This document shows, one piece after another, positions 1 through 15,534 of a DNA stretch of 15,785 bases. The stretch is taken from positions 1-15,785 of the forward strand of contig JAPUJS010000481.1 of assembly GCA_027296045.1 (NCBI GenBank), read 5' to 3'. The notes below the pieces were generated by a model that saw nothing but the letters and a program-made list of their open reading frames with translations, had not been told where the DNA came from and searched no databases. Made by a program: the position numbers and the translations under genes. How positions within the stretch are numbered: the first letter of the stretch is position 1; each line of letters opens with the position of its first letter. This DNA comes from a bacterium. Lineage in GTDB: Bacteria > Latescibacterota > UBA2968.

Positions 1-43
1 GTGTTTACAACAATTAAAAATAAAATAGGCACAATAGACCATC

Positions 44-58
44 TGGCATACGCCTTGC
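44..58 (+). promoter_or_regulatory. Candidate sigma-54 (RpoN) -24/-12 promoter for the pspA operon
   Basis: TGGCAT-acgcc-TTGCG (GG at -24, GC at -12, 5-nt spacer) fits the TGGCAC-N5-TTGCW consensus. It lies about 75 nt upstream of the pspA ATG. An AT-rich tract (11-40) that could be a bending site lies upstream. psp operons in Enterobacteria are sigma-54 dependent. Confidence 0.6.
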
Positions 59-134
59 GAACAAGAGATGGCGTAACCCGTGAATCACCTGACTTGTCAA
101 ATAGAAAAAAGAATCAAAGAGAGAGGAGAACATC

Positions 135-812
135 ATGGCACGTGGAATCTTTTCAAGAATGGCTGACATCATCAGGGCCAATGTCAATGAACTCGTCACC
201 CGGGCGGAAGACCCGGAAAAGATGATCCGACAAATGATTCTGGAAATGGAAGAGGCCGTTAACAAAGCCACCGCCTCGGTCGGAACCGCCGTGGCCAACG
301 AAAAACGTCTGGAACGGCAGCATCTGGAAAAACAAGACCAAATCGAAGCCTGGCAAAGCAAAGCCGAGCTGGCCGTTGAAGCCGGCGAAGACGACCTTGC
401 CCGACGCGCACTGGAACGCAAATCTGCAATTCAGGCTGCTGTCCAGGACCTGGAAGCCGCCCTGGATGAAAGCAAAAAGACGTCGTCCCAGCTCAAACAG
501 CAGCTCACCCAGCTCAAGGGCAAACTCGACGAAGCCCGCACACGCCAGGTCGCCCTCGTTGCACGCCGTCGGGCTGCCGAAGCACGCAAGCAAATCGCCA
601 AGAGTATAACGGGCGTGGGCGACGATGCCTTTTCCAGTTTTGACCGCTTCCGTCAGCGCATTGAAGCCGAAGAGGCCGAAGCCGAAGCCCATCAGGAAAT
701 CGCCGGTGCCGAACCTTCCCTCGACGACGCCTTTGCCAAACTCGAGCGCAAAAGCTCCGTGGAAGACGAACTCAAAGCCCTGAAAGACAAGATGGGAAAG
801 AAAAATGCGTGA
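135..812 (+). CDS. pspA: Phage shock protein A (PspA/IM30 family, ESCRT-III-like membrane remodelling protein)
   Basis: The N-terminus MARGIFSRMADIIRANVNELVTRAEDPEKMIRQMILEMEEAV closely matches the canonical PspA start [40 protein letters not shown]. The protein is 225 aa, helical, coiled-coil rich and charged. An RBS GAGGAG lies 8 nt upstream. Confidence 0.9.
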   Translation: MARGIFSRMADIIRANVNELVTRAEDPEKMIRQMILEMEEAVNKATASVGTAVANEKRLERQHLEKQDQIEAWQSKAELAVEAGEDDLARRALERKSAIQAAVQDLEAALDESKKTSSQLKQQLTQLKGKLDEARTRQVALVARRRAAEARKQIAKSITGVGDDAFSSFDRFRQRIEAEEAEAEAHQEIAGAEPSLDDAFAKLERKSSVEDELKALKDKMGKKNA

Positions 813-1512
813 TCTAGAAAAACTCGCCGACAAGATCGTCTTCGAAGTTGACAGGGCGGTTCGAGAGGTTCAAGATAAAATAGACCGTACGGTCAAACGA
901 GCAGAACAGAAAGTCAGGAAAGCGGAGCGCAGAACACAGCGGGTGTGGGAGTCGCAACCCGACTGGAGTGAATCCCGGACAGTTCGTGACTTCCAGACCG
1001 CTGCCACCAAAATTAAGAAATTCCCCACCCGCATCTCTGACCTGGCCACCGATGGGAGCTGCGCCATGCGATATCTATTTTCCTACTGTCTGAAAGGTTG
1101 GGCTTTCTGCCAGGGATTCGGCGGTCTCATGCTCGTCGCAATCACACTGGCAACCTCTGAACATCCCTGGCGCCAAGAAGAAATCAGTATTGGCCTGGTA
1201 CTCCTTGCCACCTCACAGGTTCTCTGGTGGATCGGTCAGCGCGTGAACAAATCCGCCGACCAGAAAGCCTACGCCCGCGATCAGCATCGCATCTTACGCC
1301 TTGCCCGCGAAAAAGGCGGCAACCTCACCGTCATCGAAGCCGCTACCGACGGACGGATGACCACCGAAAAAGCCGAAGAAATCCTGAGAGAACTGGCTGT
1401 ACAAGGCCACACCGAAGTCCGTGTCACCGACTCGGGCGTGATGGTCTACCACTTCCCAGAAATTTCCCGCTGGGATGAAAAACAGTGGGCCCGACCGGTT
1501 GACGAACTGTAA
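805..1512 (+). CDS. Membrane protein with N-terminal coiled-coil region, two predicted TM helices and a C-terminal winged-helix-like domain. Possible PspA partner or anchor.
   Basis: The start ATGCGTGA overlaps the pspA stop by 8 nt, which suggests translational coupling. Hydrophobic stretches are GFGGLMLVAITLATS and ISIGLVLLATSQVLWWIG. The C-terminus LTVIEAATDGRMTTEKAEEILRELAVQGHTEVRVTDSGVMVYHF has a wH-like pattern. No confident family assignment. Confidence 0.6.
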   Translation: MRDLEKLADKIVFEVDRAVREVQDKIDRTVKRAEQKVRKAERRTQRVWESQPDWSESRTVRDFQTAATKIKKFPTRISDLATDGSCAMRYLFSYCLKGWAFCQGFGGLMLVAITLATSEHPWRQEEISIGLVLLATSQVLWWIGQRVNKSADQKAYARDQHRILRLAREKGGNLTVIEAATDGRMTTEKAEEILRELAVQGHTEVRVTDSGVMVYHFPEISRWDEKQWARPVDEL

Positions 1513-1523
1513 GGGAGAATCCC

Positions 1524-1727
1524 ATGGACATGGACCTGATTTCGATTGGCTTGATGGTCGCCCTGATCATCCTGGCCTCAGCCGTTCACAAATACGTCGA
1601 CCGGCGCACCAAAGGCTCCATCCCCTCCGAAGCGGAAGAACGATTGATGGACCGGATGAATGAACTCGAACGCAGACTCACCGACATTCAAGATGTGATG
1701 CTCACCATTGACGATAAGCTCAATTGA
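1524..1727 (+). CDS. PspB-like small membrane protein, paralog 1 (N-terminal TM, C-terminal conserved helix motif)
   Basis: 67 aa with TM ISIGLMVALIILASAV. The C-terminus SEAEERLMDRMNELERRLTDIQDVMLTIDDKLN resembles the E. coli PspB tail SEQQRLAQLADEAKRMRERIQALESILDAE. RBS AAGGGAG. Confidence 0.7.
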   Translation: MDMDLISIGLMVALIILASAVHKYVDRRTKGSIPSEAEERLMDRMNELERRLTDIQDVMLTIDDKLN

Positions 1728-1744
1728 AGCTAAGGGAGGACACC

Positions 1745-1954
1745 ATGCTTGGCATCACCATGATGATCGTCATCATCATGCTCGCTTCAGCCGCCTGCAA
1801 ATACGTGGACCGGAAAACCCGCCATTTCGGCCCCTCCGAAGCGGAAAAACGACTGATGGACCGAATGGATGAACTCGAACAAAGGCTCACCGATATTCAA
1901 GACATCATGATCGCTATAGATGACAAGATGAGCCGGCCCGAAATGAAAATGTAA
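1745..1954 (+). CDS. PspB-like small membrane protein, paralog 2
   Basis: Start at ATG 1745 (RBS GGGAGGA 6 nt upstream; the track ORF begins at TTG 1724). TM MMIVIIMLASAA. C-terminus SEAEKRLMDRMDELEQRLTDIQDIMIAIDDKM. About 70% identical to paralog 1. Confidence 0.7.
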   Translation: MLGITMMIVIIMLASAACKYVDRKTRHFGPSEAEKRLMDRMDELEQRLTDIQDIMIAIDDKMSRPEMKM

Positions 1955-1979
1955 AAGCGTCTAAAGGAGGGAACCAAGC

Positions 1980-2225
1980 ATGTCACATGAAATTATACGC
2001 ACCGTCTTGGCCGGCATCGTCACGATCATCCTGTCCTCCGGACTTTGTTATTATATCGTCGAGCGTGCAAAATCAAGACCCTGGAAATCCGGCAAAGCCC
2101 CCGACGTGGAAAAACTCGAACAACGCCTCAAATCCTTGGAACAGCGCCTCACTGATATCCAGGACATTGTTCTCTCCATTGACGATCAACTAAAACGCTC
2201 GTCCGGCATTCCCCTTGAGAAATAA
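1980..2225 (+). CDS. PspB-like small membrane protein, paralog 3
   Basis: 81 aa with TM VLAGIVTIILSSGLCYYIV. C-terminus VEKLEQRLKSLEQRLTDIQDIVLSIDDQLKR. RBS AAAGGAGGG. Confidence 0.7.
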   Translation: MSHEIIRTVLAGIVTIILSSGLCYYIVERAKSRPWKSGKAPDVEKLEQRLKSLEQRLTDIQDIVLSIDDQLKRSSGIPLEK

Positions 2226-2237
2226 AGGTCTGATCCC

Positions 2238-3083
2238 ATGAACAAATACCTTCTGTCCATCCTGGGAATCCTGCTCTCCATTTCGCACATCGAAGCCTAC
2301 GAAGGCCTCGACCTGTCGGCCCAAGATATTGCCCAGTTGTCAGCCGTTGGTGTCACTCCCGAATACGTCCAGCAAATTCAACAACTGGGCTACAAAGATA
2401 TCTCTGCCCATGATATTACCCAACTCTATGCCGTTGGTGTGAAACCAGACTACATACGACAAATACGCAAGCTGGGTTATAAAGATATTTCTATCCACGA
2501 CATTACCCAACTCCACGCCGTTGGAGTCAAACCAGACTATGTGAGACAAATCAAAGACCTGGGCTATAAAAACATTTCCATCCACGACATTACCCAACTC
2601 CACGCCGTTGGGGTCAAACCAAACTATGTGAGACAAATCCAAAATCTCGGTTACGACGATATCTCTATCCATGATATCACACAATTTTATGTAACCGGAG
2701 TAACGCCCGACTATATCAAAAAAATGAAGGGCTCAAAAACAAAAATACATATTCCCGAAATCAAAGTGGACGTGCCCAATATCCAGGTTCATATCCCTGA
2801 AATCAAAGTGAATGTCCCACATATTCAGGTTCATGTCTCTGGAGTACAACATACGCGGTCGAACCCATCACGATGGAAAAATGCAGCAAAAATTGCTGGC
2901 TTGAGTTTTCTGGTTCTCGGCATCGGCTTTGCAGTCTATAAACTGAAAGATCCATATCCTGCACCACCCGAAAAACCGGATATAGAATCCCGAATTACCG
3001 AGTTTGAACAACGTGTCACAGACCTTCAGGATATCTTGATCTCCATTGATGACCGATTAAATCGACAATTGAAACATAACTAA
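2238..3083 (+). CDS. Repeat-rich membrane protein: signal peptide, 5x 29-aa tandem repeats, 2x approximately 16-aa repeats, a single TM, and a PspB-like C-terminal motif (paralog 4)
   Basis: The N-terminus MNKYLLSILGILLSISHIEA looks like a signal peptide. The 29-aa repeat DISIHDITQLHAVGVKPDYVRQIKDLGYK occurs five times, and HIPEIKV(D/N)VP(N/H)IQVH occurs twice. TM IAGLSFLVLGIGFAVY. C-terminus RITEFEQRVTDLQDILISIDDRLNRQ. Nucleotide-level tandem repeats span 2390-2690. Confidence 0.75.
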   Translation: MNKYLLSILGILLSISHIEAYEGLDLSAQDIAQLSAVGVTPEYVQQIQQLGYKDISAHDITQLYAVGVKPDYIRQIRKLGYKDISIHDITQLHAVGVKPDYVRQIKDLGYKNISIHDITQLHAVGVKPNYVRQIQNLGYDDISIHDITQFYVTGVTPDYIKKMKGSKTKIHIPEIKVDVPNIQVHIPEIKVNVPHIQVHVSGVQHTRSNPSRWKNAAKIAGLSFLVLGIGFAVYKLKDPYPAPPEKPDIESRITEFEQRVTDLQDILISIDDRLNRQLKHN

Positions 3084-3106
3084 TTTGATCTTTGGAGGGA
3101 CATCCC

Positions 3107-3436
3107 ATGAAATTTCTGTTCCAGCTTGCACTCTGTATCTGTCTGATCATCCTCACGGCAGGAACCATTGGATTTGTTATAGAAGATGGGGACTTTTTTT
3201 CGGGTGGCATCATGCTGATTGTGGTCTGGAGCATTATGTTCGCAATGCTCAAAAGAGCCCTTATTTTTGGTCAATCGGATCAAACCGATTCTGTCAAACA
3301 GGAATGGGCGGACCGCATCACCACCCTTGAAAAACGCCTCACCGACATCCAGGACGTCGTCATCGCGATCGACGATAAGTTGACACGTCAGGAATTCAGA
3401 TCCGATACGACTGTCCGTTCAAAAGAAGAAGCCTGA
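3107..3436 (+). CDS. PspB-like membrane protein, paralog 5 (two TM helices plus the conserved C-terminal motif)
   Basis: Start ATG 3107 with RBS GGAGGGA 6 nt upstream (the track begins at TTG 3092). TMs LALCICLIILTAGTIGFVI and IMLIVVWSIMFAML. C-terminus ADRITTLEKRLTDIQDVVIAIDDKLTRQ. Confidence 0.7.
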   Translation: MKFLFQLALCICLIILTAGTIGFVIEDGDFFSGGIMLIVVWSIMFAMLKRALIFGQSDQTDSVKQEWADRITTLEKRLTDIQDVVIAIDDKLTRQEFRSDTTVRSKEEA

Positions 3437-3498
3437 TACGGGATGGCGCCAAATATACCTCAACATTTACTCTGGCATCAAAGAGAAAGGACCTGTTG

Positions 3499-3669
3499 AT
3501 GCTTATCAAAATTCTCGGCATTGTCTTCATGATCGTCGGAGGTGGCATGGCCCTGGGAATCCTGTTCCCCCTTATTGGCTCCATTTTCGGACTCTTGTGG
3601 CTGGCCCTCAAACTGGCTATCGCCCTCGTCTTCGTCTACGTCGGTCACCGGCTCTTTTCTCAAGACTAA
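3499..3669 (+). CDS. Small (56 aa) two-TM membrane protein, PspG-like. Not in the supplied ORF track, probably because it is under the apparent 61-aa cutoff.
   Basis: ATG 3499 is preceded by AGAAAGGA. The product MLIKILGIVFMIVGGGMALGILFPLIGSIFGLLWLALKLAIALVFVYVGHRLFSQD is entirely hydrophobic with a GGG turn. Its length and pattern loosely resemble E. coli PspG (LLFVIGFFVMLMVTG...LPWLLLAIAVVWVI). It lies inside the psp-like cluster. Confidence 0.5.
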   Translation: MLIKILGIVFMIVGGGMALGILFPLIGSIFGLLWLALKLAIALVFVYVGHRLFSQD

Positions 3670-3758
3670 TTTCGACCCATACCGGTATGGTTGTGTATCT
3701 CACAACCACGTGCAAAGGTGAATCGCGAACACCTTTGCCACACAAATAAGGATGTACC

Positions 3759-4340
3759 ATGTCTCGTTCCAACGACCAAGCCCTCATTCGCAAAGCGCTC
3801 AAAGGCGATCATCAAGCCTTCGAAACGCTTTATAAAGCACACTACCCCCAGATCTATGGGGTCATTGCCCAGCGAGCAAATGATCGCGATCTGATCGATG
3901 ACCTGGTGCAAAACACCTTCATGCGGGCGTTCCGATCGTTGCACACCTTTAAAGGCAACGCCGCTTTCTCAACCTGGCTCACCCAGATCGCCCTCAATGT
4001 GTACCGATCCCATCTTCGGTCCAAACAGGCCCGACAAAACTGGCTGATCGAAACCGAAGACCCCGAGCTTGTCCCGGGCATCATTCGAAACGTTTCTGCC
4101 TTTGACGATCCGGAACAATCCATGCAGAACAAAGAACGCACCGCCCTCATCCGAAAAGGCATCCAGTCTTTGCCCGAACGATATCGAGAAGCCATGTGGT
4201 TGCGCTATGTCAAAGACTGGTCTTACGAAGAAATTACCCATGCCCTTCAGGTGCCTATTGGCACCGTCAAAACCTGGCTTTGCAGAGCCAGGCGTCAACT
4301 GGCCGGAGAATTTCGCAAGATGGGACTCCAACCCGTTTAA
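3759..4340 (+). CDS. ECF-family RNA polymerase sigma-70 factor (sigma-24/RpoE-like)
   Basis: 193 aa. Region 2 is DLVQNTFMRAFRSLHTFKGNAAFSTWLTQIALNVYRSHLR. Region 4 is LPERYREAMWLRYVKDWSYEEITHALQVPIGTVKTWLCRARRQL. Typical ECF architecture. Confidence 0.9.
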   Translation: MSRSNDQALIRKALKGDHQAFETLYKAHYPQIYGVIAQRANDRDLIDDLVQNTFMRAFRSLHTFKGNAAFSTWLTQIALNVYRSHLRSKQARQNWLIETEDPELVPGIIRNVSAFDDPEQSMQNKERTALIRKGIQSLPERYREAMWLRYVKDWSYEEITHALQVPIGTVKTWLCRARRQLAGEFRKMGLQPV

Positions 4341-4395
4341 ACTTGACGGTGGGGTCATTCTGTCCCTATCTTGCCCAATAATAAGGAGGCCGACT

Positions 4396-5001
4396 ATGGA
4401 AGCCTGGTGGGTCGGACTTGCACCCCTGAACCAGATGCTGTATTCTGTCGCCATCTTTTTCAGCATTTTGTTCCTCTGGCAGTTCCTGAGTGCTTTAATT
4501 GGACTGGGCGGCAGTTCGGACTTCGATGTCGCCGAAACCGGTGCCAGTGAACTGGGCCCCGAAGTAGATGACGGATTTCACGAAAGTGGTATTGCCACCT
4601 TCAAATTGCTCTCCGTCCGATCCGTCATCGCCTTTGGGATGCTCTTCGGCTGGGCAAGTGCCCTCTACCTTGAATCGGGCCTGGACCTCTCAGCCGCTGG
4701 ACTTCGGGGCATCTTCTGGGGTACAGCTGGAATGGCGCTGGTTGCCTATTTTTTCTACAAAGTCCAGCGGCTCACCGAAACCGGTAACCTCAAACTGGAA
4801 ACCTGTGTCGGCACCGATGGCGAAGTTTATATCGACATTCCCCAAAACGGAGCCGGTCAAATCCGAGTAATCGAAAGCGGGGTTGTCAACTATGTATCTG
4901 CCCGAAGCAAAGGGGGGAACGCCATCCCGAACAAAACCTCTGTTCGCGTTCTGAAAACCCTCGATATGACCACAGTGGAAGTCGAACCCACCCATTCCTA
5001 A
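4396..5001 (+). CDS. NfeD-like membrane protein (short NfeD/YuaF family; N-terminal TM helices plus C-terminal OB-fold)
   Basis: Start ATG 4396 with RBS AAGGAGG. The TM-rich N-terminus carries the C-terminus GTDGEVYIDIPQNGAGQIRVIESGVVNYVSARSKGGNAIPNKTSVRVLKTLDMTTVEVEP, typical of the NfeD OB domain. It sits immediately upstream of a flotillin gene, as in yuaF-floT operons. Confidence 0.8.
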   Translation: MEAWWVGLAPLNQMLYSVAIFFSILFLWQFLSALIGLGGSSDFDVAETGASELGPEVDDGFHESGIATFKLLSVRSVIAFGMLFGWASALYLESGLDLSAAGLRGIFWGTAGMALVAYFFYKVQRLTETGNLKLETCVGTDGEVYIDIPQNGAGQIRVIESGVVNYVSARSKGGNAIPNKTSVRVLKTLDMTTVEVEPTHS

Positions 5002-5021
5002 ATCCATCTTCGCCCAGCCTT

Positions 5022-5061
5022 CAGCCGTCTGCTCTCCTGGCCTGGCAAGAGCAGACGGCTG
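5022..5061 (+). other. Perfect 14-bp stem-loop between nfeD-like and flotillin genes (intercistronic hairpin, not a canonical terminator)
   Basis: CAGCCGTCTGCTCT - 12-nt loop - AGAGCAGACGGCTG. Followed by GAGCGCTGAGCGCC and a 4-T run; no real U-tract. Confidence 0.5.
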
Positions 5062-5105
5062 AGCGCTGAGCGCCATTTTCTATCCCAATCGGAGGGGAGG
5101 GTCTT

Positions 5106-6755
5106 ATGCCCATCGAGATGATTCTCATCATCGGACTCGCTGCGGTTGTTGTTCTGCTTTTCATTACTTTTATTTCTCGCTACAAACGCTGTCCGTCCAA
5201 TAGAATCCTGGTCATTTATGGCAAAACCGGTACCGGCACAGCGGCCAAATGCATACACGGAGGTGCCGCCTTTGTAATTCCCCTCCTGCAGGACTATGCA
5301 TATCTCGACCTGGAACCCTTTGTGGTTCCCATCGACCTGGACAACGCATTGTCCCAGGAGAACATCCGTGTCTCGGTGCCCACCACCGTTACAGCGGCCA
5401 TCTCCAATCAGCCCGGCATTATGCAAAATGCGGCCGTTCGCCTTTTAGGACTCAGCCGCCAGCAGGTGCAAAGCCAGGCCCAGGACATCATCCTCGGTCA
5501 GATGCGGGCGGTGATTGCCACGATGCAAATTGAGGAAATCAACCGGGACCGCCAGGGCTTTATGAGCAAGGTCAACGAAGCGGTGTCGACCGAGATGGAA
5601 AAAATCGGCCTTACCGTTATCAACGTAAACATCAAAGATATCGATGACGAAAGCGGCTATATCACAGCCATTGGCCGGAAAGCCGCCGCCGAGGCCGTCA
5701 ACCAGGCCGCCATCGATGTGGCCGAACAGGAAAAAATGGGCAAGGTGGGTGTGGCCGAACGGGATCGCGACCGCCGAAAAGCGGTTGCTGCCGCCGAAGC
5801 CAGTGCCGATATTGGCGAATCGGAAGCCGAACGGGAAAGACGTCGACAGGTCGCCGCACTGAACTCCGAAGCAGAAATCGGCGAATCGGAAGCCGAACGG
5901 GAAAAACGCCGACAGGTTGCCGCATTAAACGCCGAAGCAGAAATCGGCGAGGCAGAAGCCGGACGGGACAAACGGCAGCGCGTGGCATCTCTCGAAGCCG
6001 AGGCTGTCCAGACAGAATCCGAAGCGGACGCCAAAAAAGCCGGGTATCTGGCCAACCAGCGTGTGGCCGAGGAAAGTGCCCGACGCAAAAGCGAAGAAGC
6101 CTCCAAAGCGGCTGACGGTGCCATCCGGGTTGCCCAGGAAAATGCGCAAAAAGAAGCCGAAGAAGCCAGAGCGCTTCGCGAAGAAGCCCGTCTGAAAGCC
6201 GAAGTCGTGGTCCAGGCCGAAGCAGAAAAACAGCGTCAGATTGTGGAAGCCGAAGGCGAAAAAGAACAACGACGCCTGGTTGCCGAAGGCGAAGCCGCCG
6301 CCATTCTTGCCCAGAAAGAAGCCGAAGCCAAGGGAACCCAGGCGATCCTGGATGCCAAGGCCGAAGGTTATCGAAAAATGGTCGAAGCCTGCGACCACAA
6401 CGATCAGGCTGCTGCGGCCTTTCTCATTATTGAACGCCTCACCGAAGTCGCCCACATTCAGGCCGAAGCCATCCGCAACCTGCCCATCGAGAAGATCATG
6501 GTCTGGGACAGTGGCAACGGGGAAAGTGGTATGTCCAACCTGGGCCAGCGGTTGATGGGGGCGATTCCCCCAATGCACGATCTGGCTCGCCTGGCCGGAC
6601 TGGAATTGCCCGAATTCCTGGGTAGACTAACCCAGAAAGAAGACGGGGCCACTGGAAATAACCGGACCGGGGAAAAAACAGAAACGCAGGTCGAAAACCA
6701 GGATGCAGCCCAGGATCAGACAGGCGAGACGACAAAAACAGGCGGGGAAGCGTAA
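5106..6755 (+). CDS. Flotillin (SPFH/Band-7 family, FloT/YuaG/YqiK-like)
   Basis: 549 aa. N-terminal TM IIGLAAVVVLLFITFI, then an SPFH domain (RILVIYGKTGTGTAAKCIHGGAAFVIPLLQDYAYLDLEPF...). Long E/A-rich coiled-coil repeats (EAEIGESEAERERRRQVAALN x3) and a conserved C-terminus IIERLTEVAHIQAEAIRNL. RBS GGAGGGGAGGG. Confidence 0.9.
   Translation: MPIEMILIIGLAAVVVLLFITFISRYKRCPSNRILVIYGKTGTGTAAKCIHGGAAFVIPLLQDYAYLDLEPFVVPIDLDNALSQENIRVSVPTTVTAAISNQPGIMQNAAVRLLGLSRQQVQSQAQDIILGQMRAVIATMQIEEINRDRQGFMSKVNEAVSTEMEKIGLTVINVNIKDIDDESGYITAIGRKAAAEAVNQAAIDVAEQEKMGKVGVAERDRDRRKAVAAAEASADIGESEAERERRRQVAALNSEAEIGESEAEREKRRQVAALNAEAEIGEAEAGRDKRQRVASLEAEAVQTESEADAKKAGYLANQRVAEESARRKSEEASKAADGAIRVAQENAQKEAEEARALREEARLKAEVVVQAEAEKQRQIVEAEGEKEQRRLVAEGEAAAILAQKEAEAKGTQAILDAKAEGYRKMVEACDHNDQAAAAFLIIERLTEVAHIQAEAIRNLPIEKIMVWDSGNGESGMSNLGQRLMGAIPPMHDLARLAGLELPEFLGRLTQKEDGATGNNRTGEKTETQVENQDAAQDQTGETTKTGGEA
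5811..6008 (+). repeat. Three tandem approximately 66-nt in-frame repeats inside flotillin (22-aa EA-rich coiled-coil units)
   Basis: ATCGGCGAATCGGAAGCCGAACGGGAAA(G/A)ACG(T/C)CGACAGGT(C/T)GCCGCA... repeated, with the third copy more diverged. Confidence 0.8.
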
Positions 6756-6824
6756 GGCGTGAAACAGATATTGCGCCAATAACTTCTCAACCGCACACCC
6801 ATTTTTAAACAAAAAATCACAAAA

Positions 6825-6916
6825 GGCCACGAAGTCCAACCGCTCCCTTCCGGGAGCAAAGGTGGGTTTCGTGGCCCTTCGTGAAAGGAAAGGGTCGGAG
6901 TCGAGGCCCTTCGTGA
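6825..6916 (+). promoter_or_regulatory. Structured intergenic region upstream of the histidine kinase gene: a hairpin plus reiterated TTCGTG motifs
   Basis: GGCCACGAAG...(nested CTCCCttccGGGAG)...TTTCGTGGCC forms a hairpin with an approximately 10-bp stem. The direct repeats GGCCCTTCGTGA appear at about 6873-6884 and 6905-6916. Confidence 0.4.
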
Positions 6917-6946
6917 TCCCGCTCTTTACCGAATGAATATGTAGCC

Positions 6947-8581
6947 ATGTCCAACCTCAAAACCGAAACCCACCAGCCCCCTCGGCCTTCCGACCAGATC
7001 GAAATTGCTCGGGAACTCCCGGAATCGTCGAACCCCGAAGCAAGTCGGTTTTCCAGACAGGGGGATGTCGCCCTCAAAAACGGGGACCTGTCCGAAGCAG
7101 TCAAAGCCTATCAAAAAGCCGTCAAGGCCGATCGCAACGACCTTCGCTCTCACCACAACCTGGGCGTGGTTTCCTACCAGCAGGAAAACTGGGAAATGGC
7201 GCAATCCTACCTGGACCGCTGCGTTCAACTTGCCCCCGAAGACTCCGATTTGCTCTTCAAACAGGGCCTGTGTGCCTTGAAACAAAATCGACGTGAAGAG
7301 GCATCCAGAGCCTTTTCCAGTGTCCTGAAATTGGACCCCGACCATCTGCGTTCCCGGTTTCAAGTGGCCCTCCTGCACGCCCGTGGAACGGCCACCGTTT
7401 CCAGAGATCGGCAAAAAGCGATTGAAAACCTGGAATACATCCTGGAGGCCTGCGGCCGGGGCGTGTCCTTCCAGAACCTGGACCGCGTCTGTTTTCTTCT
7501 GGGCAGTTTTCTAGACGACCACCCCGACAATCGCGACCAGGCCATTGCCGTCTATCGACGGGGGCTCGATGTAGATCCCTTTTTCGCCCCGGGTCACAAC
7601 AACCTGGGCGTACTTTTGATGCAAGACGGACAAACACTTCCTGCCCTGGGGGCTTTCAAAATCGCTGTCCAGCTCGAACCCGACTACACCCTGCCCTATG
7701 GCAATCTCGCTCGCCTCTTGTTTGACCATATGAGTCCAACCCAGATGGAGCAAGAATTTGGGTCCATCGTAGACGAGTTTGGTATTCAAGCACCGTCTGT
7801 CCTCGTCCAGCTTTCCCTGGAACTCATCGACCTGGGACGCGGGCAGGTCTACGAAAGCCTTTATACCCACGGCCACCGCATCAAAAACTTGATGGGCATG
7901 TCTGGCGCCCGAATGCGGCGTCTGATTCGCGATTTCCCCCAGGATGCGCACGGCCTGGATGAACTTCAAAGCATTGCCCACGACCAGGAACAGATCTTCA
8001 ACCAGTGGGTCGCCTATCTCCGGTCGATGAAACAGGGGACAATGAACCTCACCCTGGTTGACGTGTCCCAACTCGTTCATAAAACCACCGGCGGCCTGTC
8101 TGCCCAGGCCGGATCAAAAACCCTGCACTTTGCATCCGAAACCCGGGTTCCCCAGGTCAAAGCAGATGCCGGTATGCTTCGGGAAGCCGTGACCAACCTC
8201 ACCCTCAATGCCCTGCAAGCCGTAGAGGAAGAAAGCGGCAAAGTCACCGTTCAAGTGGGACACGATCCATTGCGCGCCTCCGTTTATATCGAAGTCGAAG
8301 ACAACGGACCTGGCATCCCTGATGCCCAACAAGCCCGGATCTTCGACCCCGGTTATACCACCCGTCAAAACGGCAACGGCTACGGCTTGAGCATCTGTGC
8401 CCGAATCGCCTCCGCACACCGGGGCCACCTGCGCCTGATCAGCCAGCCGGGAGCCGGAGCAGTCTTTCGCATCGACCTCCCGATCGACTTTGAAGTGTCT
8501 GCCCAGGAAGACACCATTGGTCTCCAGCGTTCTGTTGCAGACGTTTCCACCGATCCGGTGACCGAAGAATTCGTTCTATAA
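6947..8581 (+). CDS. Soluble sensor histidine kinase with an N-terminal TPR-repeat domain and a C-terminal HATPase_c
   Basis: TPR-like repeats (AVKAYQKAVKADRNDLRSHHNLGVV; WEMAQSYLDRCVQLAPEDSDLLFKQGLC). N-box LREAVTNLTLNALQA. G1 VEDNGPGIP. G2 GNGYGLSICARI. No TM segment. Candidate H-site SIAHDQEQIFNQ, which is non-canonical. Confidence 0.8.
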   Translation: MSNLKTETHQPPRPSDQIEIARELPESSNPEASRFSRQGDVALKNGDLSEAVKAYQKAVKADRNDLRSHHNLGVVSYQQENWEMAQSYLDRCVQLAPEDSDLLFKQGLCALKQNRREEASRAFSSVLKLDPDHLRSRFQVALLHARGTATVSRDRQKAIENLEYILEACGRGVSFQNLDRVCFLLGSFLDDHPDNRDQAIAVYRRGLDVDPFFAPGHNNLGVLLMQDGQTLPALGAFKIAVQLEPDYTLPYGNLARLLFDHMSPTQMEQEFGSIVDEFGIQAPSVLVQLSLELIDLGRGQVYESLYTHGHRIKNLMGMSGARMRRLIRDFPQDAHGLDELQSIAHDQEQIFNQWVAYLRSMKQGTMNLTLVDVSQLVHKTTGGLSAQAGSKTLHFASETRVPQVKADAGMLREAVTNLTLNALQAVEEESGKVTVQVGHDPLRASVYIEVEDNGPGIPDAQQARIFDPGYTTRQNGNGYGLSICARIASAHRGHLRLISQPGAGAVFRIDLPIDFEVSAQEDTIGLQRSVADVSTDPVTEEFVL

Positions 8582-8611
8582 TCCTTGCAGGCGTTTCTAC
8601 CGATCCGTTCG
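8536..8611 (+). repeat. Imperfect direct duplication of the histidine-kinase 3' end
   Basis: TTGCAGACGTTTCCACCGATCCGGT...GTTCTATAA (in the gene) versus TTGCAGGCGTTTCTACCGATCCGTTCGTTTTATAA (just downstream). Confidence 0.7.
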
Positions 8612-8641
8612 TTTTATAACCCTATTTGGAAAATTTCATCA

Positions 8642-8693
8642 ATCGATTTATCTTGTATCGATCGACTTGTCTTGTAAATCGACTTATCTTGTT
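8642..8693 (+). promoter_or_regulatory. Three tandem 16-bp direct repeats ending exactly at the response-regulator start codon
   Basis: ATCGATTTATCTTGTA (8642-8657), ATCGACTTGTCTTGTA (8661-8676), ATCGACTTATCTTGTT (8678-8693). The ATG is at 8694. Confidence 0.75.
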
Positions 8694-10103
8694 ATGAATA
8701 AACAAATTCTTGTTGCAGACGACCAGATTGAAGTTCTCGATATGCTCATCCGAAGCCTTCAGGCCGATGAGCGAGACGTCCAGGCCTTTTCCACCGGAAG
8801 GGAAGCCCTCGTCTATCTCCAGCAACACCCATCGGATGTGGACATGGCCATTCTGGATCTGGATTTTGGCCCCGACGAGCCCGATGGCCTGGAGATCTTG
8901 CAGCAAATGCGGGACGAAATCCCCGACCTGCCCGTCATCATCCTCACCGGACAGGGCACCATTGATACGGCCGTGGCTGCCCTGAGACTGGGTGCGGTGG
9001 ACTTTATCGAAAAAGACTTCTATATTGAAGATAAAATCGAGATCAGTCTGGAAAAGCTGGACCGGATGCTCACGGCGCTCCGGGAAAACGCCCGGCTCAA
9101 GGTTGAGGTCCAAAATTTGGACCGGGAAAACCAGCTTTACCGATCGGAATTCGGCAAGCGCTACCGCGTAATCGGCGACAGCCCCCAGTGGCAACAGGTC
9201 CTGCGCCAGGCCGAACAAATTGCGTCCATTCCCCGACCTGCCCTCATCCTGGGCGAGCCCGGCACGGGCAAAGAACTGGTTGCCGCTGCCATTCACTATG
9301 GAGGGGTGCGCAAAGATCGCCCTTTTGTAAAAGTCAACTGCGCCGCCCTGTCCGACCAACTCCTGGCAAGTGAACTCTTCGGGCATGAGAAAGGCGCTTA
9401 CACGGGTGCTACAGAAGCCCGCATCGGCAAATTTGAAGCCGCCAATGGCGGTACGATTTTCCTCGATGAAATAGGAAATACCACCCCGGGATTTCAGCAA
9501 AATATCCTTCGGGCCATCGAATATCAGGAAGTTCAGCGCGTTGGATCGGCAACCCCGGTCTCTGTAGACACCCGGGTGATTGCCGCTACCAACGCCGACC
9601 TGGAAAAAGAAATGGCCGAAGGCCGTTTTCGCCAGGACCTCTACGACCGCCTGCGTTTCGAAGTCATTCGAATGCCCCCCCTCCGAGAACGCCGGGAAGA
9701 CATCGCAGACCTGGCCAATTTCTTTGTTGCACAAATCACCGAGGAAGTCCCCGGACTCCAGGTTCGACCGTTCTCGGATGAGGCCCTGAAAAATCTTCAA
9801 ACCTACCACTGGCCCGGCAATGTACGGGAACTCAAGTTTGCCGCCGAACGAGCCGCCTGTGTGGCCACCGGTTCTCAAATCGAGCCCGGTGATTTGCCGC
9901 CCGAAATCGCCGGCGATGTTCCGATTGTCTCCTCCGGTGAAGGATATGAAGCCCAGATCAGAGCCTTCGAACTGGGCCTGCTCAGACGGTCGTTGAACGA
10001 AACCGTCTGGAACCAGCGGGAGGCGGCCAAAAAACTCAAGCTCAGCTACGACCAGTTCCGGCATCTGTATCGAAAATACAAACTCAATCGTGAGAAACCC
10101 TAA
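8694..10103 (+). CDS. Sigma-54-dependent response regulator (NtrC family: receiver + AAA+ sigma-54 interaction domain + Fis-type HTH)
   Basis: Receiver MNKQILVADDQ...DMAILDLDFG...LTGQGTIDTAVAALRLGAVDFIEKD. Walker A GEPGTGKE. The GAFTGA-type loop ELFGHEKGAYTGA. ESELFG and RERREDI motifs. C-terminal HTH WNQREAAKKLKLSYDQFRHLYRKYKL. Start chosen at 8694; an in-frame ATG at 8667 is also possible. Confidence 0.9.
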   Translation: MNKQILVADDQIEVLDMLIRSLQADERDVQAFSTGREALVYLQQHPSDVDMAILDLDFGPDEPDGLEILQQMRDEIPDLPVIILTGQGTIDTAVAALRLGAVDFIEKDFYIEDKIEISLEKLDRMLTALRENARLKVEVQNLDRENQLYRSEFGKRYRVIGDSPQWQQVLRQAEQIASIPRPALILGEPGTGKELVAAAIHYGGVRKDRPFVKVNCAALSDQLLASELFGHEKGAYTGATEARIGKFEAANGGTIFLDEIGNTTPGFQQNILRAIEYQEVQRVGSATPVSVDTRVIAATNADLEKEMAEGRFRQDLYDRLRFEVIRMPPLRERREDIADLANFFVAQITEEVPGLQVRPFSDEALKNLQTYHWPGNVRELKFAAERAACVATGSQIEPGDLPPEIAGDVPIVSSGEGYEAQIRAFELGLLRRSLNETVWNQREAAKKLKLSYDQFRHLYRKYKLNREKP

Positions 10104-10114
10104 ATAAAAGTATT

Positions 10115-10223
10115 CAGGAGACAGAAGACAGGAGACAGGAGCCGCTCCACTCATCCGCCCAGGAGAAACAAAGGCGGGGTTGGGTGGGGCTCCTGTATTC
10201 TGTCTCCTGTCTCCTGTCTCCTG
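10115..10223 (+). repeat. Long imperfect palindrome built from (CAGGAGACA)n on the left arm and (TGTCTCCTG)n on the right arm. Possible terminator or translational control element.
   Basis: Left arm CAGGAGACAGAAGACAGGAGACAGGAGCC and right arm GGCTCCTGTATTCTGTCTCCTGTCTCCTGTCTCCTG. The approximately 45-nt loop contains a nested CCGCCC/GGCGGG stem. It ends 7 nt before ATG 10231 and is followed by ATTTCTT. Confidence 0.7.
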
Positions 10224-10230
10224 ATTTCTT

Positions 10231-11817
10231 ATGCTACACCCCAAAACCCCCAAACTCAGCCTCCGGACCTGCTTTTTCGACAGCTTCACCTTGTGGGTGA
10301 ACCACATCCCTGTCCTGTTTATCGCCACCTTTCTCACCTTCTTCCTCAGCTCGATTACCTTCACCTTGTTTATGGGCAGTCTCTACGCCGGCTTGCTGAT
10401 GATGCTTTTACAAGGCCTGCGCGGGGAGAAGCCCATTTTACGAGACCTCTTTGGCCAGTTTCGTCGCTTCATCCGCTTTTTCTCCATTACCCTGTTTATC
10501 TTGCTCTTCTTCATTTTCGGGCTTGCCCTCCTGGCCGGACCGCTTTTTTTTCTTTCCAATACCGAAATTCCATCCGAGATCCTCCAGGAAATCGAAGCCG
10601 GGATGCAAGAGGAAGGCATTCACCTTCGCCCCAGAGAAATTCTGCAATTTGTCAAAAACAGCGATTTTCTTGTCCCCGCCATCCTGATCACATTCTGCTT
10701 TATCGTGCTTCCTGGCATTTTTTTTATTGTCAAATGCTTCTACATGTATCTCCTGGCCGCCGACCGGGGCGTTCACCTGGATGAAGCTTATGTCGAAAGC
10801 CGAAAAGCCGTTGAGAGATACGGGTTCCGAAAGCATTTTTTTCTTATTTTTGCCGCCCTGGCCATCTTCTTCGGAAGCGATCTGATGGTTCGCAAAATGA
10901 CCGATGTCCCCATCGCCGAATTTTTTCCGCTCTTTGTCTTCCCCTTTGCCGTGGGCCTGTTTGTTTCGGCCTACCACCAGACCTTAGAAGCTGAAGCCCG
11001 ACAATCTCAGTTTTATCGCGAAGAGTTTGAAGTCATGCGCGACGAACTCCAGACCGCCCATGACATGCAAATGGAGCTGCTTCCCGATGAAAGCCCCGAA
11101 CTCTCCGGGTTCTCCCTGGATGGAACCTGCATCCCGGCCAATAACGTGGGCGGCGATTATTTCGCCTATCGCTGGCTCGATACAGAAAAAACGCGGCTGG
11201 CCATCCTGGTTGCCGATGTCTCCGGAAAGGCGATGGAAGCCGCCGTCACGGCCCTTCGCTTCAACGAAATGCTCCGATATGAATCTCGCGCCCGGATCGA
11301 TCCGGGCGAAATCCTGGATGGATTAAACGATTCGCTGGAAGGACAGATCGACACCGATACCTTTATCACCTGTGTGATTGGCGTCCTGGATATCACAGAC
11401 AATATCATTCACATTGCCAACGCCGGTCACTGTTTCCCCTATCACTACCGGGACCGAGATCAAAAAGCCGTCCCGGTTAATCTCACGGGCTGCCCGCTCG
11501 GCCTGCCCGCCATCATTCGGCCGGAAGAGCCGTATGAAACCCGTCAGGTCAAACTCGAACCGGGTGATATGATCGCCTTCTACTCCGACGGGGTGGTCGA
11601 AGCCCAGAATGCCCGGCACGAACTGTATGAAGATGAGCGCTTTGAAAAACTCCTGGAAACCATTGCGCCGGGAGCAAAACCAGACCGGGTGGTTCGAGCC
11701 GTTGTCCGGGAAGTCAATCAATATATCGGAGATGCCCCACGAACCGACGACGTCACCATTGTGGTTTTAAAACGGGACGGCCAGAGCGGCCCGGCAAACG
11801 ATTCGGAAACACCCTGA
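10231..11817 (+). CDS. Polytopic membrane PP2C-family (SpoIIE/RsbU-type) serine phosphatase
   Basis: An N-terminal hydrophobic domain of about 250 aa with 5 or more TM segments, then a coiled-coil linker. PPM domain motifs: GGDYFAYRWL, LAILVADVSGKAMEAA, ANAGHCFPY, GDMIAFYSDGVVEAQN, DDVTIVVLK. No SD upstream (see the palindrome), so the exact start is uncertain. Confidence 0.8.
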   Translation: MLHPKTPKLSLRTCFFDSFTLWVNHIPVLFIATFLTFFLSSITFTLFMGSLYAGLLMMLLQGLRGEKPILRDLFGQFRRFIRFFSITLFILLFFIFGLALLAGPLFFLSNTEIPSEILQEIEAGMQEEGIHLRPREILQFVKNSDFLVPAILITFCFIVLPGIFFIVKCFYMYLLAADRGVHLDEAYVESRKAVERYGFRKHFFLIFAALAIFFGSDLMVRKMTDVPIAEFFPLFVFPFAVGLFVSAYHQTLEAEARQSQFYREEFEVMRDELQTAHDMQMELLPDESPELSGFSLDGTCIPANNVGGDYFAYRWLDTEKTRLAILVADVSGKAMEAAVTALRFNEMLRYESRARIDPGEILDGLNDSLEGQIDTDTFITCVIGVLDITDNIIHIANAGHCFPYHYRDRDQKAVPVNLTGCPLGLPAIIRPEEPYETRQVKLEPGDMIAFYSDGVVEAQNARHELYEDERFEKLLETIAPGAKPDRVVRAVVREVNQYIGDAPRTDDVTIVVLKRDGQSGPANDSETP

Positions 11818-11842
11818 ACACCCCTGTATTCCAGAGGCATTT

Positions 11843-13012
11843 ATGAACGATACGGAAAACCTGATCCTGATCCACTATCACGAAATCGGCCTGAAGGGGA
11901 AAAATCGAGGCCGATTCGAACGCCAGCTCCAGAGCAATATTAACCGTGCCCTGAAAGGCCTCAGCCGGGGACCGGTCCAACGTCTGTACGGACGTATCAT
12001 CCTGAAGTTGAAACCCGATTCCCCAATCGGCGTGATTCGAGACCGCCTGACTGGCATTTCCGGCATCGCCAATTTTTCCGAAGCCATCCGTGTTCCAAAA
12101 GAGATCGAAATCATCCGGGAAACGGCCTGGGCGGTGGCCCAGAAAGCCACCTTCGAATCCTTTCGAATCACCACCAAGCGGGGCGACAAATCCTTCCCGA
12201 TGCTCTCCGAAGAAGTCAACCGGGATGTGGGCGCTTATATTCAGGAACGTTTAAACGCCCGGGTCCAACTGGTTGGCCCCGACCTGACCTGCTACATTGA
12301 AATCACTCAGGAAGACGTCTTTATCTACGCCGAAAAAGTCTCTGGTCCCGGCGGCTTGCCCGTTGGGACCGGAGAACGCGCCTTAAGCCTCCTTTCTTCG
12401 GGCCTGGACTCGCCGGTCGCCTCCTACAAAATGATCAAGCGGGGAGTGCGCCTCTCCTTCGTCCATTTTCACAGCCAGCCCTATACCAATCGTAACTCCC
12501 AACGCAACACCGAAGAACTGGTTCGACTGCTCACACAGTATCAGTTCAAATCGACACTCTACCTGGTCCCCTTTGTGGAAATCCAGCGTCATATCATGAG
12601 GAACGCCCCGGAGAACTACCGTGTCATCCTCTACCGGCGTTTCATGTTCCGCATTGCCGAAACCCAGGCCAACCAGGAAGGAGCGCTTGCCCTGGTTACC
12701 GGCGAAAGCGTAGGCCAGGTCGCTTCTCAAACCCTCGCTAACATCAAAGCCATCGAGGAAGTCACGCTCCTGCCCGTGTTGCGTCCCTTAGCCGGTGACA
12801 ACAAAGATGAAATCATCGACGAAGCCAGGCGCATTGGCACCTACGACATCTCCATCGAACCCTACGAAGACTGCTGTTCGGTCTTTGTGCCCAAACACCC
12901 CGAAACCCGGGCCGATCTGGAGAAAGTCCATAAAATCGAAGCGGAGCTGGAACTCGATGAAATCTTGCGGCAAACCTTGAGGCAAACAGAGGTCAAAACA
13001 TTTAAGCTTTAA
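11843..13012 (+). CDS. thiI: tRNA 4-thiouridine(8) synthase ThiI (short form without rhodanese domain)
   Basis: N-terminal ferredoxin-like and THUMP region (LILIHYHEIGLKGKNRGRFE). PP-loop LSLLSSGLDSPVASY. 389 aa with no C-terminal rhodanese extension. Confidence 0.85.
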   Translation: MNDTENLILIHYHEIGLKGKNRGRFERQLQSNINRALKGLSRGPVQRLYGRIILKLKPDSPIGVIRDRLTGISGIANFSEAIRVPKEIEIIRETAWAVAQKATFESFRITTKRGDKSFPMLSEEVNRDVGAYIQERLNARVQLVGPDLTCYIEITQEDVFIYAEKVSGPGGLPVGTGERALSLLSSGLDSPVASYKMIKRGVRLSFVHFHSQPYTNRNSQRNTEELVRLLTQYQFKSTLYLVPFVEIQRHIMRNAPENYRVILYRRFMFRIAETQANQEGALALVTGESVGQVASQTLANIKAIEEVTLLPVLRPLAGDNKDEIIDEARRIGTYDISIEPYEDCCSVFVPKHPETRADLEKVHKIEAELELDEILRQTLRQTEVKTFKL

Positions 13013-13023
13013 TCCAGGTGCAG

Positions 13024-13062
13024 AAAAAAATGAGCCCGGAGCACTCACAATGCTCATTTTTT
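13024..13062. terminator. Probable bidirectional intrinsic terminator between convergent thiI and the LysR gene
   Basis: AAAAAAATGAGC - loop - GCTCATTTTTT. The A-run and T-run flank a short GC-poor stem, so it is symmetric for both strands. Confidence 0.5.
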
Positions 13063-13133
13063 GCGTAAAAACCAAATCACTACGCTTCTCCGTCCACAAA
13101 TTCCCTTCGGCTTCGTCGGTGCCAAAAACAAAC

Positions 13134-14060: not shown

Positions 14061-14096
14061 CCCACTCTCCTGGGCAAATCTCCAGCGCCTCGTATT

Positions 14097-14157
14097 ATAT
14101 ATAGAAATTTTCTATATATAATATAGTAATTATTGATTTGATTAATATATAGAAATC
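14097..14157. promoter_or_regulatory. LysR-type operator candidates in the divergent lysR/ino1 intergenic region
   Basis: A perfect 23-bp palindrome ATATATAGAAA-T-TTTCTATATAT (14097-14119) contains a T-N11-A core. A direct half-site copy TATATAGAAAT lies at 14147-14157. A TATAAT hexamer is at 14117-14122. Confidence 0.6.
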
Positions 14158-14341
14158 CTGTTTTTTAAATCCATCCCAGAAAAATTCTCCCAAAACAGCG
14201 GTCCACCCCAAAACCTTCTCGGTAGCAGCAGGCGTCTCTGTCCTGCACCGGTTGTACCCGGAGCACACCGTTTCGTCCTATCACCTATCCAAATCGAAAT
14301 TTTTTGAAACCCTTCCCTTTCATCCACAAGGAGCCATTTTC

Positions 14342-15430: not shown

Positions 15431-15446
15431 GCCCTCTCCCTATTTT

Positions 15447-15505
15447 ATAAGCGCGGAACGCGCTTATAGAACGGTCCCTCTCCTGCCAGCGGAAGAGGGA
15501 CCGTT
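15447..15505 (+). other. Two consecutive perfect hairpins downstream of ino1
   Basis: ATAAGCGCG-gaa-CGCGCTTAT (9-bp stem, 15447-15467). AACGGTCCCTCT - 12-nt loop - AGAGGGACCGTT (12-bp stem, 15470-15505). Confidence 0.6.
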
Positions 15506-15534
15506 GAAACCCAATCTACGACTGCTTTGTCAAA

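Follow-up and report, generated by a model that had tools for sequence, protein, structure and literature searches.

An RpoE-like ECF sigma factor without a recognisable co-encoded anti-sigma in a Psp-type gene cluster of Latescibacterota, and the NfeD-flotillin pair that follows it

The window considered here, i.e., the whole stretch of DNA analysed, comprises 15,785 nucleotides (positions 1 to 15,785, forward strand, of contig JAPUJS010000481.1, GenBank assembly GCA_027296045.1) from a bacterium of the Latescibacterota lineage UBA2968. The genes of the window around positions 3759-6755 form a co-directional run on the plus strand, and this interval, to which an earlier note on the sequence drew attention, extends exactly from the start of a gene for a sigma factor of the extracytoplasmic function (ECF) type to the stop codon of a flotillin gene, with the gene for an NfeD-like membrane protein between the two. 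The sigma gene belongs to a Psp-type cluster that opens with a sigma-54-type promoter and pspA and also encodes a histidine kinase and an enhancer-binding response regulator (Table 1). The sigma factor most likely has no co-encoded anti-sigma and is driven by transcription from the sigma-54 psp promoter, and the NfeD-flotillin pair is an ordinary scaffold module rather than its cognate regulator.

The sigma factor combines the Pfam domains Sigma70_r2 (E 6e-17) and Sigma70_r4_2 (E 5e-16), lacks region 3 and matches the ECF (group 4) model TIGR02937 of NCBIfam with 110.5 bits against a cut-off of 42.9. This generic model is the only group call that NCBIfam provides: the protein falls under the cut-off of all specific models, the best of which are of the RpoE, SigY and SigW types, and scores 127.8 bits against the 236.15 required by the RpoE equivalog TIGR02939. 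The solved structures nearest to it are AlgU (6in7, E 3e-43), RpoE (1or7) and SigW (5wuq, E 8.5e-33), all of which the sigma profile matches over its own full length with E-values of about 1e-33 to 1e-43. The protein is conventional in its build, with no terminal extension and with invariant acidic residues in region 2 (D42, D44 and D48).

Searches with the Pfam and NCBIfam profiles yielded no match to an anti-sigma family in any open reading frame (ORF) of the cluster. Specifically, there is no anti-sigma of the RseA/MucA type in the position immediately downstream of the sigma gene (+1), which is taken by the NfeD-like gene, after a gap of 55 bp, or, in relatives, by a gene for a TPR-containing kinase. 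The arrangement reported in the earlier note, an ECF sigma gene directly followed by NfeD and flotillin genes and accompanied by no anti-sigma, is thus borne out by the domain matches, the structural comparisons and the null searches for anti-sigmas alike. Given that 114 of the 157 ECF groups have a co-encoded anti-sigma and 43 do not (PMC7826278), such an absence is not rare.

The protein encoded at +1 matches no Pfam or NCBIfam model of NfeD or YqiJ at E-values up to 10. Its gene, encoding 201 aa, starts at ATG 4396, which is preceded by the ribosome-binding site AGGAGG (4385-4390), and not at the TTG at 4069, the start of a mechanically delimited 310-aa ORF. A homologue search returned 61 clusters that, except for a few truncated entries, are 41-93% identical to the protein and mostly unnamed; a few carry the JGI label 'membrane protein implicated in regulation of membrane protease activity'. 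The sole PDB match of a profile of 39 homologues is the soluble domain of YuaF from Bacillus subtilis (E 0.25). In the AlphaFold2 (AF2) model, also based on 39 homologues, helices 10-38, 64-93 and 98-128 are followed by a five-strand C-terminal barrel; the mean per-residue confidence (pLDDT) is 68.5, with values of about 53-76 in the barrel and low values in the loops 38-64 and 126-133. When this model was compared with the PDB using Foldseek, as were the other AF2 models, the top four matches, the only ones of clear significance, were all NfeD domains (E 1.9e-5 to 1.1e-3, probability 1.00), namely YuaF (2k14, E 1.9e-5), YbbJ (8z5g), 1510-C of P. horikoshii (PH1510-C; 3wwv) and MTH693 (2k5h), followed by generic OB folds at E>0.03. 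Taken together, the modelled fold and the Foldseek matches identify the protein as a diverged member of the YuaF/YqiJ type of NfeD proteins with three transmembrane (TM) helices. The description in the earlier note of a downstream gene that opens with TM helices and ends in an NfeD OB-fold is accordingly recovered, at the level of structure only.

This is not the architecture of an anti-sigma, as that note also held. A class I anti-sigma starts with an N-terminal cytoplasmic helical anti-sigma domain of ~80 aa; here, the first TM helix starts at residue 10, and the Pfam and NCBIfam searches detected no zf-HC2, RskA or RseA_N domain in the protein. Its only folded soluble domain, according to the AF2 model, is the C-terminal beta-barrel, and the loop that joins helices 1 and 2 (38-64) is acidic and predicted to be disordered, and it varies in both length and sequence.

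The flotillin consists of a hydrophobic segment (residues 1-27), a Band_7 domain (Pfam E 8.7e-28) and an EA-rich repeat region; its best NCBIfam model is FloT, albeit under the equivalog cut-off (155 vs 700). Within its gene, a 66-bp unit is repeated 2.8 times (5814-6001) and encodes the AEIGESEAERE(K/R)RRQVAALN repeats of the coiled coil. Operons that combine a 3-TM YqiJ/YuaF protein with a band-7/flotillin protein are known both as partners of PspA, located within its operons, and as widespread stand-alone, abbreviated operons (PMC11237479), and the YqiJ/YuaF-flotillin pair is reported as a neighbour of PspA in Acidobacteriota as well (PMC9239133). The YuaF-FloT pair of B. subtilis and the YqiJ-YqiK pair of E. 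coli share with the pair described here a 3-TM protein with an NfeD OB-fold followed by a flotillin with a TM hairpin, Band_7 domain and coiled coil; they differ in that the sequence is here too diverged for the NfeD and YqiJ models and the pair has a sigma gene on one side and a kinase gene on the other.

When species-representative genomes were scanned with an alignment of the sigma, the locus was assigned to Candidatus Latescibacterota. Twenty related loci were compared (the window, L001, L002/L018, L006-L017, L019, L020 and L088/L089), with the occurrence of the core and of the pair counted from the locus tables. The core order is the same in all 20: pspA, a gene for a 210-235-aa protein that overlaps the pspA stop codon, one to several genes for small TM-plus-coiled-coil proteins, tm56 (encoding a protein of 56-60 aa), the sigma gene, a TPR-HATPase kinase gene and a gene for a regulator with receiver (REC) and sigma-54 AAA+ domains. 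In 14 of these loci the NfeD-like/flotillin pair separates the sigma gene from the kinase gene, so that the order seen in the window cannot be put down to chance in a single genome. The pair is absent from L019, L020 and L088/L089, which are basal in the tree of four concatenated proteins (PspA, sigma, kinase and regulator). It is also missing from L007, which is nested among the pair-bearing lineages and encodes the sigma closest to that of the window (71% identity); on the tree, L007 is a case of nested loss. The kinase gene directly follows the sigma gene in L007, L019, L020, L088 and L089, and also in the JGI contig of P0141, where the sigma is 62% identical. Overall, sigma orthologues found in the same cluster but without NfeD and flotillin genes are 48-71% identical to the sigma of the window.

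The two parts also occur independently of each other: the sigma is found without the NfeD-like protein in 6 of the 20 loci and in two further contigs, and the NfeD-like protein without the sigma in three independent contexts. The latter involve distant homologues (41-50% identity; L003/L004, L086 and L087) in unrelated, sigma-free neighbourhoods, and a Band_7 gene is the next gene after the NfeD-like gene in these and all other contexts examined. Furthermore, the pair has a sigma-70-like promoter of its own, with a -35 element, TTGAC(G/A/T), that is also found in this position in L006 and L012-L018, where the rest of the spacer has diverged; a sigma-70-like -10 element is also present upstream of the stand-alone pair in L003. 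Two hairpins, one between the NfeD-like and flotillin genes and one 3' of the latter, fold far better than shuffled sequence, as judged by their z-scores. Promoter, hairpins and phyletic pattern together give the appearance expected of an inserted two-gene cassette. We conclude that the NfeD-flotillin pair is an ordinary YuaF/YqiJ-FloT/YqiK scaffold module that was inserted later. Neither hairpin has a clear U-tract, and the spacer between the two genes varies roughly between 20 and 220 bp among relatives.

These observations bear directly on the proposal, made in the earlier note, of an NfeD-like protein recruited to serve as a novel anti-sigma. As considered here, it would do so in the pair-bearing subclade, perhaps with help from the flotillin scaffold. 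The position of the pair beside the sigma gene in 14 of the 20 loci, at the same site in two deep clades, could be read in this way, and a membrane-bound protein with a cytoplasmic acidic loop and an OB domain could in principle bind another protein. Nevertheless, sigma orthologues persist in the same cluster without it, including the closest one; its homologues are invariably paired with flotillins, not with sigmas; a cytoplasmic domain is lacking at its N-terminus, and the loop in question is variable and predicted to be disordered; and the pair carries its own promoter and terminator-like elements. In addition, NfeD OB domains have been seen bound to SPFH partners, as in the QmcA-YbbJ complex of E. 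coli (8z5g). We therefore regard an anti-sigma role of the NfeD-like protein as highly improbable, since it conflicts with the occurrence of the sigma without NfeD, and of NfeD with Band_7 but without the sigma.

The site between the sigma and kinase genes itself resembles an insertion hot spot, being occupied by the pair in most lineages, by a gene for a 407-aa protein in the contig of P0180 and by a 225-bp spacer in L007 (8561-8786). The 407-aa gene, which is unrelated to the pair and overlaps the sigma stop codon, was considered as an ancestral anti-sigma and rejected because the sister locus L088/L089 lacks it.

The cluster as a whole is of the Psp type: pspA (PF04012) is preceded by a -24/-12 sigma-54 promoter, and the element GG[CT]A[CT]-N5-TTGC is found 73-108 bp upstream of pspA in 20 of 20 related loci, compared with roughly 0.003 chance matches expected per 200 bp (an estimate that assumes uniform base frequencies). 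All other matches to the element in these loci are intragenic and at homologous positions, and none lies directly upstream of the sigma, tm56, NfeD-like or kinase genes. The gaps between genes from pspA to p114 range from -8 to 25 bp and are followed by 62 bp to tm56 and 89 bp to the sigma gene, short distances that suggest a continuous operon from pspA to the sigma gene. In relatives, inverted-repeat boxes of the form TTTT(N)ACCAAC are located roughly 80-130 bp upstream of the sigma-54 promoter and are likely enhancer sites; the window begins 43 bp before the promoter, so that the region of these boxes lies beyond its start and the enhancer-like box TTTYACCAAC of the relatives is absent from it.

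Table 1. Features of the cluster in the window, in order of position
Feature	Coordinates	Strand	Basis and remarks
Sigma-54-type promoter, TGGCATACGCCTTGC	44..58	+	90 bp upstream of pspA; conserved in relatives
pspA (PspA/IM30 family)	135..812	+	Pfam PF04012, E 1.4e-45; 20/20 loci
PspA-coupled PspAA-like protein, 235 aa	805..1512	+	AF2 (pLDDT 84), Foldseek; all 20 loci
Five PspB/PspC-like genes	1524-1727, 1724-1954, 1980-2225, 2238-3083, 3092-3436	+	TM helix and LExRLTDIQDIxxxIDDKL helix
tm56, 56-aa two-TM protein	3499..3669	+	Family hidden Markov model (HMM); 20/20 cluster loci
ECF sigma factor, RpoE/AlgU/SigW-like	3759..4340	+	193 aa; Pfam, NCBIfam and PDB matches
Sigma-70-like promoter of the NfeD-flotillin pair, TTGACG-18-TATCTT	4343..4372	+	Sequence; -35 kept in relatives
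3-TM NfeD-like protein, YuaF/YqiJ type, C-terminal OB-fold	4396..5001	+	AF2, Foldseek, homologues
Hairpin between NfeD-like and flotillin genes, 25-nt arms	5011..5072	+	Folding z -3.9
Flotillin, FloT/YqiK-like (SPFH/Band_7 and EA-rich coiled coil)	5106..6755	+	Pfam, NCBIfam; 549 aa
Terminator-like hairpin 3' of the flotillin gene, 22-nt arms	6817..6884	+	Folding z -5.3
Cytoplasmic TPR histidine kinase	6947..8581	+	NtrB-type H-box GHRIKN at residue 310; 20/20 loci
REC + sigma-54 AAA+ response regulator	8667..10103	+	Pfam; GAYTGA at residue 243; 20/20 loci
Multi-TM PP2C (SpoIIE-type) phosphatase, optional	10231..11817	+	Pfam; in about half of related clusters

The probable means to fire such a promoter are encoded in the same cluster. 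The kinase resembles AtoS and ZraS, the partners of sigma-54 regulators, and the regulator combines a receiver, the GAYTGA motif and a C-terminal helix-turn-helix (HTH), with PspF (TIGR02974) as its best NCBIfam model (341 bits, under the cut-off). Given the conserved sigma-54 promoter, the short gaps and the presence of an enhancer-binding regulator in the cluster, control of the sigma through its synthesis is the most economical explanation. With moderate confidence, we propose that the sigma is a fixed part of a sigma-54 Psp cluster and is controlled in this way, the NfeD-flotillin pair being a separate, inserted module. Under this scenario, the TPR kinase would sense membrane stress and phosphorylate the regulator, which would then activate the sigma-54 promoter that lies ahead of pspA; transcription would proceed along the closely packed, co-directional genes as far as tm56 and the sigma gene; and the ECF sigma would provide a second tier of the response, in a sigma-54-to-ECF cascade like that of HrpL. 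In one subclade, the NfeD-flotillin pair would have entered the site that separates the sigma gene from the kinase gene; the flotillin membrane scaffold would cooperate with PspA, and the NfeD-like protein would be the partner of flotillin, not of the sigma. The gene identities, the pattern of conservation, the conserved sigma-54 promoter and the independent distribution of the pair are shown by the data above; beyond these, the scheme presumes read-through from the sigma-54 promoter to the sigma gene, the lack of an anti-sigma elsewhere in the genome and the regulon of the sigma.

Several points weigh against this explanation. The nearest characterised relatives of the sigma, AlgU, RpoE and SigW, are all held by membrane anti-sigmas. 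The sigma-54 promoter is separated from the sigma gene by 3.7 kb and eight genes, and the 89-bp spacer between tm56 and the sigma gene folds into hairpins (z -2.5), so that co-transcription from pspA to the sigma gene is unproven. Searches for ECF-type promoters (RpoE GAACTT-N16-TCxxA, SigW TGAAAC-N16-CGTA and generic GAAC...CGT) gave scattered intragenic matches, none of them positionally conserved, and found no promoter of this kind that could serve autoregulation of the sigma or that lies upstream of the NfeD-like gene. That two deep clades have kept the pair at exactly one site could be a sign of a functional link between it and the sigma. Finally, the tree from which the history of the pair is read was constructed from four proteins by neighbour joining with midpoint rooting.

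Control by an anti-sigma is shared by AlgU (with MucA), RpoE (with RseA) and SigW (with RsiW), all matched by the sigma over the full length, which makes it plausible that a canonical anti-sigma is encoded distally, outside the 15.8-kb window; the window spans only this distance. However, anti-sigma genes are typically located at +1 (PMC7826278), and none is found beside the sigma gene in the 20 loci. The same holds for 11 paralogous Latescibacterota ECF sigmas (L021-L031; 40-49% identical to the sigma), next to which no recognisable anti-sigma was detected either. This consistent lack of an adjacent anti-sigma in 20 and 11 loci suggests clade-wide loss rather than local rearrangement, and we consider a distal anti-sigma unlikely, although it retains a modest share of the probability. 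The genes that follow the paralogous sigmas encode a cupin (L021-L025), an HlyD-type adaptor with an ABC ATPase (L026-L029) or FtsX/MacB-like permeases (L030).

A different kind of partner could be the product of tm56. This gene is located directly upstream of the sigma gene in 20 of 20 loci, at a spacing of roughly 13-90 bp, and the tm56 HMM has no match elsewhere among the 89 loci, those of the paralogous ECFs included. The protein ends in a conserved G-Y-R-L tail and is the only invariant sigma-specific neighbour; should the sigma have a local membrane partner, tm56 would hence be the strongest candidate. As a dedicated partner, it might be an anti-sigma or tether of minimal size, or a sensor from which the sigma is released under stress. 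Such a role is doubtful, given that tm56 is almost entirely embedded in the membrane and exposes at most ~8 soluble residues, far too few for a known anti-sigma domain of classes I-III. Profile searches gave no family match for tm56, which could equally be a co-transcribed effector like PspG or LiaI.

It is also conceivable that the two-component system acts on the sigma protein itself, with the regulator stabilising or recruiting it, or with the TPR domain of the kinase sequestering it. The three genes are neighbours in all 20 loci, with the kinase gene directly after the sigma gene in basal lineages, and a precedent comes from the related FCB group, in which PorX acts on SigP, an ECF228 sigma, in Porphyromonas (PMC7826278). 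The regulator, however, is a complete sigma-54 enhancer-binding protein (AAA+, GAYTGA and HTH) with a matching conserved promoter, so that its presence is already explained by this role, and direct action on the sigma is accordingly quite unlikely.

The earlier note further suggested control by PP2C or by phosphorylation. Such control could operate through Ser/Thr phosphorylation of the sigma or a partner switch of the RsbU/RsbV type. A multi-TM SpoIIE-type PP2C does end the cluster in the window, and genes for STAS-domain (anti-sigma-antagonist-like) proteins are found among the small psp genes of a few relatives (L002, 3403-3777, and the contig of P0141). However, about half of the clusters lack PP2C, and most of them, the window included, lack STAS; kinases of the Ser/Thr and RsbW types are absent, the H-box of the HATPase protein being that of a histidine kinase; and the acidic region-2 residues D42, D44 and D48 are invariant, unlike in the phosphorylation-dependent ECFs (ECF43/EcfP). 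We consider control of the sigma by PP2C very unlikely. Of the earlier interpretation, the absence of a recognisable neighbouring anti-sigma and the non-anti-sigma architecture of the downstream protein are supported, and the NfeD-like protein as an anti-sigma and control by PP2C are not. The STAS genes and the optional PP2C are a hint of partner switching as an accessory layer of control in some lineages.

Elements of these explanations can be combined into a more speculative scenario, to which we assign a low probability. An RpoE-like ECF sigma would have lost its classical anti-sigma and become a sigma-54-driven tier of membrane repair by Psp, the bacterial ESCRT-III, gated by tm56 as a tether, and the NfeD-flotillin scaffold might assist in the subclade that has it. 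If this were the case, tm56 would represent a previously undescribed kind of sigma tether, minimal in size and lying almost entirely in the membrane.

Synthesis-based control of ECF sigmas has known counterparts. A sigma-54-to-ECF cascade exists in the case of HrpL, the synthesis of which is driven by sigma-54 enhancer-binding proteins. Three two-component-linked assemblages of ECFs, namely ECF32, ECF39 (subgroups 1-3) and ECF234, have no co-encoded anti-sigma, and ECF32 is in the same clade as the RpoE-type ECF02 (PMC7826278). The cluster described here likewise has a two-component system conserved in its context (20/20 loci) and no detectable anti-sigma domain, as do HrpL (ECF32) and SigE-CseABC of Streptomyces (ECF39). 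It differs from both in that the candidate sigma-54 promoter heads an eight-gene psp operon instead of directly preceding the sigma gene. Assignment to ECF234, suggested by a context of two-component system and ABC transporter, was rejected because that group is confined to Firmicutes. RpoE-RseA of E. coli and AlgU-MucA of P. aeruginosa (ECF02) provide the best full-length matches of the sigma, but here no RseA/MucA-like gene is present at +1 and the RpoE equivalog cut-off is not reached.

The proteobacterial pspF-pspABC system shares with this cluster a sigma-54 promoter at pspA, a PspF-like AAA+ activator and PspB/PspC-like proteins with a TM helix and a zipper. The two differ in that, here, the activator has a receiver domain and a cytoplasmic TPR histidine kinase as its partner, the PspB/C-like paralogues number five, and the cluster includes an ECF sigma and tm56. 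The other relevant parallel is the ECF sigma-W of B. subtilis, which drives floA, floT (in yuaF-floT) and pspA-ydjGHI (PMC8581546). Like the sigma-W system (ECF30), the cluster ties an envelope-stress ECF, here one that resembles SigW, to pspA and to a flotillin with its YuaF-type partner; in B. subtilis, floA is included as well, the anti-sigma RsiW is encoded at +1 and the targets are dispersed, whereas here the genes are clustered, with no RsiW-like gene and no sigma-W-type promoter found. The term 'ECF' does not occur in the survey of PspA neighbourhoods (PMC11237479), and among the papers searched none ties Latescibacteria to systems of this kind.

Each component belongs to a known kind, and it is their combination that differs from the described systems. 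The 20 loci represent a well-conserved Psp-type envelope-stress cluster of an uncultured phylum, in which traits previously known apart from one another are brought together. Its psp promoter is of the sigma-54 type, its PspF-like activator contains a receiver and is accompanied by a cytoplasmic TPR kinase, it has several modules of the PspB/C-like kind, and it includes an RpoE-like ECF sigma that lacks an anti-sigma and, optionally, a flotillin-NfeD scaffold. A conserved mini-membrane protein beside the ECF sigma is a further part of the combination. The cluster brings an ECF sigma, PspA and flotillin into physical linkage; in Bacillus, the sigma-W regulon is all that connects the three. Since the flotillin module is present in some clusters and missing from others, they form a natural series that could serve to study the anti-sigma-free control of ECF sigmas and the cooperation between PspA and flotillin. 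With NfeD largely ruled out as a new class of anti-sigma, follow-up effort in that direction can be saved.

Several of the remaining genes merit brief comment. The gene that follows pspA overlaps its stop codon by 8 nt. In the AF2 model of its product, a single helix of 50 residues at the N-terminus is followed by a helical hairpin and, at the C-terminus, by a winged helix, an arrangement in line with how the PspA-associated 'PspAA' domain has been described in the literature. This protein was considered as a hidden anti-sigma, with a soluble N-terminus before hydrophobic helices, and rejected, given that Foldseek retrieves winged-helix domains and no anti-sigma structure. Its matches include MarR-type winged helices and human EAP30 of ESCRT-II (3cuq_A; 60 aa, 32% identity, root-mean-square deviation 1.6 A, E 5e-3); next to a homologue of ESCRT-III this resemblance is intriguing, but alone it is not significant.

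The five small TM modules between this gene and tm56 resemble an expanded PspB/PspC-like family in sequence, and two of the five weakly match the C-terminal zipper of PspC (TIGR02978; E 1e-3 and 0.04). One of them (2238-3083) is a secreted repeat protein with a signal peptide, fused to a TM helix and a PspB/C-like helix. Two tandem repeats occur in its gene: 3.4 copies of an 87-bp unit (2373-2671), which encode ~29-aa units such as DISIHDITQLHAVGVKPDYVRQI..LGYK, and 2.2 copies of a 42-bp unit (2748-2841); a homologue was detected in L007 only.

The spacer between the kinase and regulator genes contains three copies (x3.0) of the 19-bp unit ATCAATCGACTTATCTTGT at 8638-8692, which extend into the annotated 5' end of the regulator gene; the repeat could be a regulator-binding array, and the true start of the regulator is likely ATG 8694. 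Finally, the 127-bp gap between the regulator and PP2C genes contains an inverted repeat (10108-10230) with arms of up to 34 nt and CAGGAGA / CTCCTGT heptads, probably a terminator or processing site.

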